53,758 bases of DNA from Catajapyx aquilonaris (lineage: Eukaryota). The notes under the pieces are model-generated. The model saw nothing but the letters and a program-made list of their open reading frames with translations, had not been told where the DNA came from and did not search any database. The stretch lies in contig JYFJ02003164.1 in the NCBI GenBank assembly GCA_000934665.2, positions 1-53,758 of the forward strand, read 5' to 3'. The translations under genes and the position numbers were made by a program. This document shows positions 17,830-27,835 of the stretch, piece by piece. Each line of letters starts with the position of its first letter. Position 1 is the first letter of the stretch.

Positions 17830-17866
17830 TATAAAAACCAACATGCGTGCCAATATCTGCTGCATT
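17830..17866 (+). promoter_or_regulatory. TATA box and putative initiator of knottin gene 1
   Basis: TATAAAA at 17830-17836, GCATT about 30 bp downstream, then CAACATG with the ATG at 17877. Confidence 0.55.
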
Positions 17867-17876
17867 TCTTCTCAAC

Positions 17877-18797
17877 ATGTCATCCTATTCTGTGCTTGTC
17901 GTCCTTCTCTTACTCGCCTCAATGGCAAAAGGAGGTGTTCCAAGGAAGAAGCTTGCATTCATGCTGTACCCACAAGACGGGGGGGCTACATCAACTACGC
18001 CAAGTACATCTGAAGACGCGGAAGCAGTTTCCAAAGAAGTTCTACCAGATCCACCTAGGCCTACTCCCCAGGTCAAGGCTTTCTCCGTTAGCCCCAGCTT
18101 CAGCAACATCAACAACAGTAACCTCACCAGCGGCAGCCTCATTAGCAGCCCAGCACTTTGGCCAGCTCAAGTCAAGAAGAAAGGTACCGGTACTCGTAAA
18201 GTGGTTGCTGAGGAAGAACCAGAATCTGATGTTGGAAACAAAATGTTCCTAGGTCTGGCATCATTTATGGACCCGAAGGAAAGAAGGAAGCACTCCAATT
18301 GCCAGGGACTTGGAGAATACGTAAGTATACTACAATATATTACCGATTAATAGTTGCCCAGATCAGTTCCCTATTCTCTGGTGAGCAGCTTGGAAAATAA
18401 GAATGCATTCCCAAGTAGGATCATTATACCCTGCTTAACAAAAACAACGTTTCAACAATGTGCAATAACTTCGAGTGTTGTTGTCCCCCAATTCATTAGG
18501 CTACTAGAGCTGGAGTCCAATAGTCCATTAGAACCGGAGAAGCTCCACTCGACCGTCCTGCATTACATTGAAGATACGGTATCATACAACTTTTTGCTAT
18601 CAGGAAGGGCATTGTGTCGTGATTAGATAGTCACTTTGCATTTGTCACAAATAATGGCAATGAATAATTTGTGATGGATTCTCTTTTCTTCACAGTGCAC
18701 CAGAGATGAACAGTGCTGCTATGCATACTGTCAGCATCGCATTCTAATCACCGGAACTCGAATGCGAGTCTGCCAGATCTACGGAAAAAGTGGCTAA
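17877..18797 (+). CDS. Secreted knottin (ICK) precursor 1; exons 17877-18320 and 18696-18797, 181 aa
   Basis: Signal peptide MSSYSVLVVLLLLASMAKG, S/P/T-rich pro-region, basic site ERRK. The phase-0 intron GTAAGT...TTCTTCACAG joins HSNCQGLGEY to CTRDEQCCYAYCQHRILITGTRMRVCQIYGKSG*. AATAAA at 18828. Confidence 0.9.
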
Positions 18798-18914
18798 GGC
18801 TGTATTTTGGTAAAGAACATTTGGGTAAATAAATATAAACTTTTGGGTCTACTGCATTAAATACTTTAATTTTGGAATAAATTTGTTACAGTCGAACTTC
18901 CCTACTATTTCCTC

Positions 18915-18937
18915 TAATAATAATAATGATGATGATA

Positions 18938-19000
<63 letters not shown>

Positions 19001-23488: not shown

Positions 23489-23511
23489 CTCCAAACACCA
23501 AAGTGATGCTA

Positions 23512-23619
23512 TGTACTATATCGCCCAAAAAGATAGAGACGATTTTGCATTTGACTCAAGTGCAACTTGCAATTGAATCAAATGCCAATCGTCTCTATCT
23601 TTTTGAGCGACATAGTACA
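23512..23619. mobile_element. Short hairpin MITE
   Basis: Imperfect inverted arms of about 45 bp. Confidence 0.65.
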
Positions 23620-23716
23620 ATTTAATTTTAAGTCATAAGCTATACCAAATATTTTCACAGGGTATATATCATATATATTTACTTCTTTTATCTTTTATGG
23701 ACAGAAAGAGAGAAAC

Positions 23717-26700
23717 ATGCTGGTCACAATGCTTTGCTTGTGCCTTTTCCTCTTGCCTTCAGAAATTGAATCATGTTTCTTCGGAGGGTGAGTCACTTTT
23801 CTTTATACTCAACTATACACAGAATTGAACTTCAGATGTATTTCCTGTTTCAATTAGTAAGTTATATCCATATGCATAGCGCAGAAAAGTACATTTTGTG
23901 ATGTCAATAGGTTTATTGAGTAGAATTAGCATGGTTTTTTCTGCACACTTGTATTAGAGCTCTTTATTAACCTTTAAGAGTAGCACAATTATTACTCTAG
24001 GATATCTAGTTTGAAAATTAGAATTAAAAGTTACTGATTACACTTCACATCGGGTCAGGGGCGTAACAAGACTCTTGGGGGCCCTGGGGCAAAAAGGTAC
24101 GCGGGGCCCCCTCCATAGTAATACCAGTTATTAGCTCTTGGTAATACGTAATGCAAGACGTAATGATTACGTATAACCAGCGGCGTAGCCAGGAAATTTG
24201 TAAGGAGGGGGGGGATTACGTGAGGGTGGAGCGAAGAGGCCCGTCGCAGGCGAATTTTTTTTTGCTGTTCAAGTTCACACAAGCTTAGGTGAATGTAACT
24301 GACCAGTTAGTTAGTTATTTTTAACTGGTTTGCATGCTGCCTGGTTCCTTTCGTCAACATGCTCAAAATTTAGACATCCAAAATAATCCAAAACACTATA
24401 TCCATCCAGTTTATTGACATCTGCCAGTTATTTTCTTTAAATGAAAATGCTGAAAAGGTCAGCAAAATGCAAGATAATTACTACTGGCAAATGACAGTGC
24501 CCACCAAAAGTTTTTCAGTGTTTTTGTACCTTACTGACACTGCGACTGCGAGAGTCTGACAGTGAGATAGTGAGAGGTCCCCCGAATTGATTGGATCGAA
24601 CCCGCTTTCTTACGTCTTATAGAATATAGAATATAGGTTATAGCTGGTTATAGACGTTAGGCCTATTATGGATTTGGGGGTTTCCTCAAAATTTTCTAAA
24701 ACTCGTCGGAAAATTCGGGGGCCCCTTTGCTCGGGGGCCCTGGGGCAGTCGCCCCACCTGCCCCTATGGTAGTTACGCCCCTGCATCGGGTCCTTCATAT
24801 GAAAAGATGGTCCATGAGTATTTTATCAGCCTTTAATGTAAAACTCAAGAGAAGAACCATGTACCAGTTTGCAATTAAAATACTGTCATTTAATCTCGTT
24901 TATTACTAGCAATACGTAGTTTTTATTTTTATTTTTGAATGACTTCAAAAGGCACATAAAAAGGTAAGGTACCATTTTGACAACATACTAGGAATCACTG
25001 ACAAGACATTTGGGAAAGACTAGCAAACCAGATTGAGTGGTATAGAGGGCACTTACGCTCTTTGGAATCAGACTACTTGTTATTCATCTTTGCCACTCAC
25101 AAACACTGATAGTAATTTTAATTATTGAGATGAGGTTGACATGTTATACTGCTCACTGATGCAGTCACAGGAGCTGTTTCCGGTATAATTTCTAAAACTT
25201 TACTTGCCACTCCTTGCGTAGCACTAATATCCGACAATATAATTTTTTGTTCATTACCCCACGGGGGAGCTATCTACCCCTTAGGGGGGGGGGGTGGATT
25301 ACCACCATTGGTATTTATTTGGAGCGTGTTAAGAGAATCTTATTAATTACTCCAATGGTTGGTAGGAGGGGATGTGCAAAGTGCATGTGCGCTGTCGTTG
25401 AGTGGTCATTTTGTGAACTCCCCCGGGTGGATTAGTCTTTAGGAAATTTCCACCCGAAATGAAGCCAGAGATGGCCCAACTCTGCACGGATAAAGGTGGG
25501 AACCCCGGGTGGGGATTGAACCCGGGACCTTCATATCCGTGGGCGCACGCGTTACCGCGACGCCACTTCATCTCCCTACAATATAATATATTACCGTACT
25601 TATTAAAACCTAAATAATCGTCTAAACACTGCAAAGAACTCGCAAAATGGTTATAAGCACAATAATTAACACTAGAAGCACAGGACATCAAAAACGAATA
25701 TGTATGTTTAAACTAACACGAGATTTCCTCAAGCAGAGGCGAACCAGAACCAGCACCTAATAATTATGAGCAGCCCACGGTAAGTGAATCGCTCAATTTT
25801 GACAACGGAATTCCTACACACCTTTTAATTTCAGCAAAAGAGAGTCCGCATGGCAGTCCCGTCGAAAGGGAAGATGACTAAAGCCGGACCTCGAAAAAAT
25901 TGCATGGCCACTCTCAGTCCTAACAACAATAGAGCAAACAATAAGATACCAACGTACAAACCTCAACCAACTCCCTCAGATAAAGTCTATCTAGATGACG
26001 TGAACATACCTGGTAGCACGCCAGACAACGGTGAAGGAACAGGTGAATTTGACAAGGGGATAGGATCAAGGGGGAAAGATGGTCAAGGGATAGATTACTT
26101 AGGCATAGAGCCTGGACTAATTGAGACCTCGAAAGATGACCTAGGTAGAGATGGTGGGAACAATCTTTCGGATGGAGGCGGTGGCCCTGGAACGGGAGGC
26201 GGTGGCTCTGGAACTGGAGGCGATGGCCCTGGAACGGAAGGCGGTGGCTCTGGAACTGGAGGCGATGGCCCTGGAACGGAAGGCGGCGGCTCTGGAACTG
26301 GAGGCGATGGCCCTGGAACGGAAGGCGATGGCCCTGGAACGGAAGGCGGTGGCCCTGGAACTGGAGGCGGTGGCTCTGGAACGGAAGGCGGTGGCCCTGG
26401 AACTGGAGGTGGTGGCTCTGGAACGGGAGGTGGTGGCTCTGGAACTGGAGGTGGTGGCTCTGGAACGGGAGGCTCCGGAAAAGGAAATGAGGGCAAAGGA
26501 GGCAGTGTCTATGGTGACTACAAAAATAAGAAAAAGAAAGATGTTCAATGGCAGGGAGGCTGACGAAATGGTTTTTTGCCTAAATTATCCTAATCAACAG
26601 GAAACGAAGTGGACACATACCCTGATGACGAAATGTGGAAAAAAATATCTTTAGATCCGCCTGCAGTCAGGTACAGCGACAGCCACTGCAGATGGATTGG

Positions 26701-27327
26701 CGAGTTTGTAAGTAACATAACCAAAGCAGAATTCAAGCTTTATTTGTAGAGTATGTGAGAAAAAGGACAGAAGTTCATAAAATTTAAGTTAGGAATTTCG
26801 TGTAGGCCAATGATGTGCAAGTGTCAGGATGTAAATTGGGCAAAAATATCCCAGAAATGAAATGAAGAACGTTATCTGCTTGACCACATTTTTATAAATA
26901 AATTATAAAGGTTGGTGTTTAAGAAATGTGGGACATTCACATGCCCTTGTCATCCTTCACACATGTGCATCACTATTTTTTGGAGGGACTTTATTATTGA
27001 TTTTTTTTGGAAAAGATAATTATTGATTTCGCTGATATCACATTTTTATTAACTTAATTATTTCATGTTAGGAGATGCCATCTCCTATTTTGCTCAGTGC
27101 TTCATATTATTTTCATGTTCAAAGCAAGATTTCCATGTTACGGGAGGATTTGCAGGAGGAGGAGTCAGCACTTAATTAATACATGTCATTAATAATTTTT
27201 CTTTAATTGTGCATTTTAGTGTCAAACAGACATCCACTGCTGCCATAATTACTGTCAACATATTATCGAGGACAACGGCGCAAAAACATCGACATGTCAA
27301 AAAGACAGAAAGAAGACACCAAAGTAA
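23717..27327 (+). CDS. Secreted Gly-rich knottin (ICK) precursor 2; exons 23717-23787, 25734-25779, 25835-26513, 26601-26707, 27220-27327, about 336 aa
   Basis: AAACATG start and signal peptide MLVTMLCLCLFLLPSEIES. All four introns are GT-AG and keep frame (phases 2, 0, 1, 0). The C-terminus reads SHCRWIGEF|CQTDIHCCHNYCQHIIEDNGAKTSTCQKDRKKTPK*. AATAAA at 27518. The donor at 26514 (GTGACT) is the weakest junction. Confidence 0.85.
24056..24783. mobile_element. hAT-like MITE (same family as 7855-8454) in intron 1 of knottin gene 2
   Basis: CAGGGGCGTAAC...GTTACGCCCCTG, 8-bp TSD CATCGGGT, body homologous to the first copy. Confidence 0.9.
25244..25577 (-). mobile_element. Full-length SINE family B
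   Basis: tRNA-Arg(ACG)-like head and TSD ACAATATAAT (25234-25243 / 25578-25587). Confidence 0.9.
26177..26470 (+). repeat. Coding minisatellite, 14 x 21 bp, encoding G(G/D)G(P/S)GT(G/E)
   Basis: Counted directly within exon 3 of knottin gene 2. Confidence 0.95.
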
Positions 27328-27835
27328 TTCATTTGGTTGTAAAGGAGAGGTAGTGTTTCTCCTCATTTTAGGCCTTCCGAATGAGCTACAGTAACCAAAG
27401 CAAAATATGCCAGATTGCAGCAGTGACATCTTGCATGTAAATTATGTTATTAAAAGGTGGTTGAAACTCGATATCCATTGTTATTTGTTTCAAGGTTTTG
27501 GGTGATAGTGGTAAGTTAATAAATTCCTGGTGTAAAGTATGCTCATCATAATGTTTCATTTATATCAGAAGTCGTCCCTAATGGAAGCCAGCAATAACGA
27601 AAGAAGCACAAGAATGAGCATTCCTTGGCATATTAAATGCAGTGTATGCAGGGACCAATACAAGTTTTGGTGCATTTGACCAAAAAAAAATTGCTTGGCT
27701 CATCGCCCTATAATTTTATTCAAACTCTTACTGATGATGCGCTGCTTATGTTTCACGAAAATCATGATACTGCAGAGAGTGTAGACTATACTGTGTAATC
27801 TGTGTTGCGAGTTGCATTCATTGATATGTACAGTA

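Follow-up and report, generated by a model that had tools for sequence, protein, structure and literature searches.

A 53,758-nucleotide (nt) stretch of Catajapyx aquilonaris DNA (contig JYFJ02003164.1; hereafter the window, at its full length) contains two genes whose predicted products both end in a six-cysteine domain. We propose, with a probability of roughly 0.55, that these genes – gene 1 and, downstream of it on the same strand, gene 2 – are secreted precursors of endogenous insect knottins, or inhibitor cystine knot (ICK) peptides, and that they form a diverged branch of this class rather than a venom-type invention. The window is eukaryotic DNA with a G+C content of ~41% and carries microsatellites and dispersed repeats throughout.

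Two genes share a six-cysteine domain split by an intron

After splicing, each gene yields a domain with the spacing C-x6-C-x5-CC-x3-C-x13-C – that is, loops a to e of 6, 5, 0, 3, and 13 residues. In each gene, a phase-0 intron lies directly before the second cysteine (Cys2), at 18321-18695 in gene 1 and at 26708-27219 in gene 2. A first-pass annotation of the window had drawn attention to these domains, and when we re-read the DNA we recovered both of them as quoted and where it had placed them. The spacing and the intron position that it had described hold in both genes, and its junctions, 18320/18696 and 26707/27220, are correct to the base and carry donor and acceptor signals.

To the right of the intron, the domain reads C-x5-CC-x3-C-x8..18-C. 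This pattern occurs twice in a six-frame translation of the whole window, only at the last exons of gene 1 and gene 2. First-order Markov resamplings of the window gave an expectation of 0.015 occurrences per window, with at least one occurrence in 3 of 200 resamplings and at least two in 0 of 200. Since two occurrences are observed against 0.015 expected, a chance origin of the pattern is excluded, and the cysteine-domain observation is confirmed as real and non-random.

Evidence for an ancient duplication

An ungapped alignment of the spliced products covers 43 residues, of which 18 are identical (42%; pairwise E 7e-11), and begins nine residues before the first cysteine (Cys1). The exon-2 pieces alone share 12 of 27 residues (E 7e-08), and the exon of gene 2 that encodes Cys1 (exon 4) matches the tail of gene 1 exon 1 with a local score of 36, reached by 1 of 2000 shuffles. 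Both copies keep their reading frames, their splice sites, and all six cysteines, together with a GE-aromatic motif, an aspartate, YCQH, a central glycine, and a final CQ. The likeness of the two pro-regions upstream of the domain was not significant, its score being reached by 174 of 2000 shuffles.

At the nucleotide level the two genes are far apart. Different codons are used for 12 of the 18 identical residues, and codon differences between gene 1 and gene 2 affect 29 of 43 third positions, compared with 19 of 43 first and 19 of 43 second positions. Synonymous divergence (dS) between the genes is saturated and not computable. We found no similarity between the introns of gene 1 and gene 2, and the DNA of the two loci shares nothing beyond a 13-base word.

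Given this saturation of silent sites and the lack of any relation between the introns, the duplication is old, and we would therefore expect orthologues in related species. The frame, the splice sites, the cysteines, and the other shared residues have nevertheless been kept, which argues for selection on the protein rather than for chance open reading frames or decaying relics. Since the pro-regions are not significantly alike, the shared constraint lies on the knot alone – the expectation if the knot is the active part. Comparison of the predicted products thus shows the two genes to be head-to-tail diverged paralogues from an ancient duplication, and both are probably functional. The first-pass annotation had suggested a diverged paralog family, a claim borne out by the 43-residue alignment, the common phase-0 intron, and the saturated silent sites.

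Gene 1 encodes a predicted secreted precursor

Gene 1 has two exons and a predicted product of 181 amino acids (aa) with exactly six cysteines. Its features are as follows:

17830..17837, forward strand: TATA-like box TATAAAAA, 47 nt before the gene 1 ATG
17877..18320, forward strand: exon 1, 148 codons, donor tac/GTAAGT
18321..18695, forward strand: intron, 375 nt, phase 0, directly before the Cys2 codon; strong pyrimidine tract, cacag acceptor
18696..18797, forward strand: exon 2, Cys2 to Cys6 and a six-residue tail, with TAA at 18795-18797
18828..18833, forward strand: AATAAA, 31 nt past the stop, followed by a second AATAAA at 18876-18881

Exon 1 encodes a signal peptide (~19 aa), a Ser/Pro/Thr-rich pro-region, a KERRK basic site five residues before Cys1, and Cys1 with the six residues that follow it. 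The signal peptide at the start of this exon is convincing and agrees with the earlier description of gene 1 as coding for a secreted precursor. Serine (16), proline (13), and lysine (11) are prominent among the 122 residues of the N-terminal part; the six-residue C-terminal tail contains one lysine and no proline. Another ATG, at 17843, follows the TATA-like box by no more than a few bases and for this reason is probably 5' of the transcript start. A microsatellite, (ATG)25 + (ATC)12, occupies 18926-19038, ~130 nt past the gene.

A five-exon model for gene 2

The knot exons of gene 2 lie 8.5 kb downstream of their gene 1 counterpart. Exon 4 requires one base from a preceding exon, so gene 2 cannot start at its own knot exons, and we therefore sought exons upstream. 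The resulting five-exon model spans 336 codons, is stop-free, and has GT-AG at every intron:

23663-23679, forward strand: putative TATA-like run ahead of candidate exon 1
23717..23787, forward strand: candidate exon 1, hydrophobic signal-peptide-like start, donor agg/GTGAGT, phase 2
25734..25779, forward strand: candidate exon 2, 46 nt, acceptor ttcctcaag/c with CTAAC 17 nt upstream, donor acg/GTAAGT
25835..26513, forward strand: putative exon 3, ~100 non-repetitive codons and then a Gly-rich repeat, donor atg/GTGACT, phase 1
26174..26473, forward strand: 21-nt repeat (family D3), 14.3 copies, encoding (G/E)G(G/D)G(P/S)GT
26601..26707, forward strand: exon 4, Cys1 and six residues, homologous to the tail of exon 1 in gene 1, donor ttt/GTAAGT
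26708..27219, forward strand: intron before Cys2, 512 nt, phase 0, acceptor tttag
27220..27327, forward strand: last exon, Cys2 to Cys6 and a basic nine-residue tail, with TAA at 27325-27327
27518..27523, forward strand: AATAAA, 191 nt past the stop, with ATTAAA at 27449-27454

Candidate exon 1 provides the only signal-like ATG outside microsatellites that has a good donor and a frame running into the later exons. The putative first intron is 1.9 kb long and carries copies of two dispersed repeats (families D8 and D9); the intron between candidate exon 2 and exon 3 measures 55 nt. Ahead of its repeat, exon 3 has a single open frame, which is the one used in the model. Within the Gly-rich units, 1, 2, and 3 of 7 columns are variable at codon positions 1, 2, and 3, respectively, a distribution that leaves the coding status of the repeat undecided. 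Skipping exon 3 – by joining exon 2, or exon 1 in the frame of 23717, to exon 4 – is out of frame. An alternative path that stays in frame starts at ATG 23697: read from there, the donor of candidate exon 1 is in phase 1 and can be spliced straight to exon 4, giving ~100 aa with a poor signal peptide. This ATG precedes the candidate start of gene 2 by 20 nt and is in another frame; it could be an upstream open reading frame or an alternative start.

In the model, 88 of the 274 residues ahead of the knot are glycine. No dibasic site adjoins the knot, and a single arginine occupies the place aligned with the KERRK of gene 1; the nine-residue tail has five basic residues and one proline. Pro-regions of about 120 and 270 aa, as first estimated, fit both structures, which place Cys1 at position 142 of 181 residues in gene 1 and at position 295 of 336 in the gene 2 model. 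Just downstream of gene 2 lies a minisatellite with a 25-nt unit (28453-29356, ~36 copies, 92% matches), which accounts for a strong GC-skew swing at 28-30 kb.

Cysteine layout and predicted structure

According to the KNOTTIN database paper (PMC2238874), loop a is strongly biased to 3 or 6 residues and the largest families have a zero-length loop c. Both genes have a loop a of 6 and adjacent Cys3 and Cys4. We ran AlphaFold2 on exon 2 of gene 1, a partial domain that lacks Cys1, and supplied gene 2 as the other row of a two-row alignment. The model has strands at residues 11-16 and 22-27, with a mean predicted local distance difference test (pLDDT) score of 74.4 and a predicted template modeling (pTM) score of 0.32 for this partial domain. 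The predicted β-hairpin of the partial-domain model falls between Cys5 and Cys6, the place of the hairpin in knottins.

We think it likely that the six-cysteine domain takes the knot fold, which is plausible but unproven. As for the ICK reading offered at first pass, the part that stands is the fit of the cysteine layout to the class, joined now by the hairpin of the partial model; assignment to a curated family at cut-off did not follow.

Comparison with known insect and crustacean peptides

The closest described gene structure is that of hymenopteran knottins. The Nasonia naickins and Apis amickin-1, ICK peptides that have an extended Pro/basic C-terminus and were modelled on tachystatin B1, share a conserved phase-0 intron before Cys2 (Tian et al., PMC2853521). 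Gene 1 and gene 2 likewise have a phase-0 intron directly before Cys2. In the bullet ant, a six-cysteine scaffold Cx6Cx5CCx4Cx6Cx29 is listed at 43.8 transcripts per million (TPM), and an ant contig annotated as omega-conotoxin-like protein 1 at a TPM of 43.79 (PMC7290781). Because these values match, we take the scaffold to be of the OCLP1 type; its first three loops of 6, 5, and 0 residues recur in both genes. The comparison with naickins, amickin-1, and OCLP1 was by description (intron place, scaffold, and length), and further likenesses to the hymenopteran ICK family are the insect-type, secreted, six-cysteine character of the peptides and the short basic tail of gene 2 with its one proline. 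With their long low-complexity regions, the gene 1 and gene 2 precursors reach 2 to 4 times the hymenopteran length.

Secreted knottins are also known from a hemipteran. The whitefly (Bemisia tabaci) peptides knot-1 to -4 are 59-65 aa long and respond to stress and infection (PMC4974540). Compared by description, they belong to the knottin class; their hemipteran origin fits the probable taxon and their responsiveness a host-defence reading, and the precursors described here are 3 to 5 times longer.

The gene 2 model resembles the chimeric peptides of crustaceans in its layout: a signal peptide comes first, a Gly- or Pro-rich region of low complexity follows, and a disulfide domain stands at the C-terminus. 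A Gly-rich-plus-cysteine-domain layout of this kind is that of type II crustins, penaeidins, and hyastatin. Crustins are described as multi-domain ('chimeric') antimicrobial peptides (PMC7017220). The likeness is one of design only and comes without evidence of homology: unlike gene 2, the crustacean peptides carry other cysteine domains (WAP and others).

What is unusual in gene 1 and gene 2 is the length and low complexity of their pro-regions, together with a last loop of 13 residues; the kind of peptide and the intron place were already known. The first-pass annotation had singled out the last loop and the pro-regions as unusual; the last loop indeed differs from that of OCLP1-type and γ-conotoxin peptides, and the precursors are longer than those of OCLP1-type and whitefly peptides. 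Its suggestion of an undescribed system was overstated, since the phase-0 intron before Cys2 had already been described for naickins and amickin-1 (PMC2853521).

Observations that weigh against the proposal

Several observations count against reading gene 1 and gene 2 as endogenous insect knottins. Both genes are known from genomic DNA alone, and exons 1 to 3 of gene 2 stand as a model. Relative to the OCLP1-type scaffold, loop d is 3 instead of 4 residues and loop e is 13 instead of 6, and the long Pro/basic tail is missing, with tails of 6-9 residues here versus 25-29 in ants (PMC7290781). The precursors, at 181 and ~336 aa, also exceed the 74 aa given for Apis OCLP1 and the 76-80 aa of the ant peptides. 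The intron place shared with naickins and amickin-1 could be a coincidence.

Searches for curated relatives were equally unsupportive. In Pfam, gene 1 exon 2, searched without Cys1, scored 15.3 bits with Toxin_29 (cut-off 25) and 13.5 with Conotoxin_I2 (cut-off 27), and the last exon of gene 2 gave no row at E up to 10. A sequence search of the Protein Data Bank (PDB) returned 0 matches for the two-gene profile and for gene 1; the five PDB rows for gene 2, at E 0.5-1.2, were lysozyme and RING proteins and were rejected as chance level. With the 33-aa partial model as query, Foldseek found nothing at E <= 0.001, its best rows being unrelated hairpins, and VIA-align in wide mode found 0 of 48,161 chains at Z >= 2. 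These two fold searches are uninformative, because a 33-aa partial model is too small. By protein-language-model features, the nearest named Atlas clusters of both exon-2 pieces were knottin clusters (Toxin_12, omega-atracotoxin, cyclotide, and diguetoxin), which speaks for the fold, but the scores of 0.75-0.82 serve as leads only: one in three shuffled proteins attains a score of ~0.8, and of the 10 best family hits only 4 agree.

Other searches at the level of single exons were blank as well. No Pfam family matched gene 1 exon 1 or gene 2 exon 3. In a library of 5.8 billion clusters, gene 1 exon 1 gave 75 candidates, none at E <= 0.01; residues 1-105 of gene 2 exon 3 gave 8, none at E <= 1; and a 40-aa piece around gene 1 exon 2, searched for in longer proteins, gave zero. 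When a profile of both last exons was searched exhaustively with HMMER through 1.84 billion representatives, a single match (P0004) came up, an 807-aa repeat protein that was rejected as spurious with its score spread over 7 weak stretches. Neither the exon-2-piece search nor the last-exon profile returned an insect ICK peptide. As the queries were short or lacked Cys1, these results are weak evidence of novelty; they indicate that the genes have no close annotated relatives, not that they form a new family.

A possible route from precursor to peptide

If gene 1 and gene 2 do encode endogenous knottins, the signal peptide would direct each precursor into the secretory path, where the last ~40 residues would oxidise to a knot with 1-4, 2-5, and 3-6 connectivity and a β-hairpin in the 13-residue last loop. 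For gene 1, convertase cleavage at KERR/K, five residues before Cys1, could free a peptide of ~44 residues. In gene 2, which has a single arginine at the aligned place, the knot may stay attached to the Gly-rich repeat.

The likeliest job of such peptides would be host defence – antimicrobial, chitin-binding, or phenoloxidase-inhibitor-like – by analogy with what has been proposed for tachystatin-type peptides and OCLP1, the closest insect knottins. For OCLP1, which we take to be the same gene as amickin-1, Bloch and Cohen reportedly put forward the hypothesis of an antimicrobial or phenoloxidase-inhibitor role in 2014. A host-defence function for gene 1 and gene 2 is a guess by analogy, and this too counts against our proposal.

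If expressed, the two genes would represent a new branch – hemipteroid, in our view – of endogenous insect knottins, and their intron position would argue that knottin peptides are much older than their sequences reveal. Whether the ICK peptides of animals had a single origin or repeated ones is an old question, on which such an argument would bear. Among insect knottins, it is unusual for the knot to follow a 14-copy Gly-rich repeat or a mucin-like stretch, an architecture that could mean a carrier, targeting, or material function. A bolder and rather doubtful extension is that the phase-0 intron ahead of Cys2 is the mark of a single ancient knottin lineage, common to Hymenoptera and hemipteroid insects and diverged beyond the reach of sequence searches, in which the knot was joined to mucin-like or Gly-rich carriers to form 'knot-capped' secreted polymers or chimeric defence proteins, a class so far undescribed. 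At a practical level, small intron-split cysteine-rich genes of this kind are easily overlooked by annotation based on open reading frames.

Alternative explanations

The genes might instead code for toxins of venom or saliva, knot peptides secreted by a gland that act on prey, predators, or host tissue by blocking ion channels. This reading, which lies close to the gland-secretion idea of the first-pass annotation, we regard as unlikely. The spacing of the first four loops, CX6CX5CCX3C, is identical to that of the γ-conotoxins (O-superfamily, framework VI/VII; CX6CX5CCX3CX4C; PMC4773792, Table 1), which are mollusc venom peptides. Unlike theirs, the last loop here has 13 residues (the γ-conotoxin as7a has a long one, of 10 residues; PMC4773792), and the conotoxin Pfam families stayed below threshold; the likeness is one of cysteine layout only, most likely reached by convergence. 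Assassin bugs, which are Hemiptera, make venom ICK toxins of the Ptu1 family (PMC4773796). Like spider ICK toxins (Toxin_12, Omega-toxin), these belong to the six-cysteine knot class; the nearest Atlas clusters are spider toxin families, and the sub-threshold Pfam rows are also toxin families. The resemblance ends at the modest Atlas scores reported above, with no Pfam or PDB sequence match and zero toxin-family matches at threshold. Moreover, the window holds two old diverged copies only, rather than a young expanded array. The intron place fits endogenous hymenopteran knottins, unlike that of scorpion ICK genes, which have one intron of phase 1 within the propeptide and another, of phase 2, at the first mature codon (PMC3694633), or the structure of mygalomorph and several other spider toxin genes, which are intronless (PMC7199488).

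It is also improbable, in our judgement, that the knot is never released and acts as a C-terminal cap or cross-linker on a secreted low-complexity protein, for example a glue, sheath, cuticle, or silk-like material. In its favour, both genes have a long N-terminal part of low complexity, mucin-like in gene 1 and a Gly-rich repeat in gene 2, where a 7-aa unit is present in 14 copies and the knot has no dibasic site beside it. Release is nonetheless what KERRK, so close to Cys1, would suggest for gene 1. A structural role for the N-terminal parts also sits poorly with their lack of significant likeness (the 174 of 2000 shuffles noted above) and with shared constraint on the knot only, and the splicing of the Gly-rich exon to the knot exons is putative.

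A third explanation, to which we give little chance, is that the domain has some other small disulfide-rich fold and that its ICK-like spacing is coincidental. Spacing alone leaves the connectivity unfixed, the knottin profiles all scored below threshold, and the structure model covers only part of the domain. Against this stand a loop a of 6 residues with adjacent Cys3 and Cys4, typical of knottins (PMC2238874), the hairpin predicted between Cys5 and Cys6 in that partial model, and the same intron place in peptides modelled as ICK (PMC2853521).

Finally, it is very improbable that one or both genes are non-functional relics, or that the knot exons of gene 2 are part of some other, shorter transcript than the one modelled: the restriction to genomic DNA, surroundings full of repeats and transposon relics, and the second in-frame path from ATG 23697 to exon 4 would allow it, but decay would not have left the frames, all 12 cysteines, and the four core splice sites intact despite saturated silent sites, and gene 1 has a complete promoter-to-poly(A) layout.

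Repeats and other elements of the window

An Rfam scan of 15000-31000 found nothing, and a search of the whole window with ARAGORN found no tRNA. Dispersed short repeats with 86-95% identity pair 25343-25528 with 7670-7855, 24647-24795 with 8318-8466, and 20523-20616 with 31609-31702. Some of these repeats carry tRNA-like GGTTCGAATCC-type cores, in which ARAGORN calls no tRNA. They are probably SINE-like (short interspersed nuclear element) repeats, and two copies fall in the putative first intron of gene 2. Long trinucleotide microsatellites include (TAT)n runs at 20746-20830, 31837-31930, and 41200-41440.

Transposon remains are present on the reverse strand. A mariner-type transposase fragment at 50527-50802 (reverse strand) matches Pfam Transposase_1 (E 2.8e-12). 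It adjoins one copy of a ~670-nt two-copy repeat (37080-37750 and 50794-51463; 98% identity, 13.7 kb apart). An open reading frame at 2422-2868 (reverse strand) has a weak helicase match (Herpes_Helicase, E 2e-4, below cut-off) and is presumably a relic of a Helitron/Pif1-type helicase. A tandem array with a 50-nt unit (family D4) occupies 44952-45384 in ~7-8 copies.

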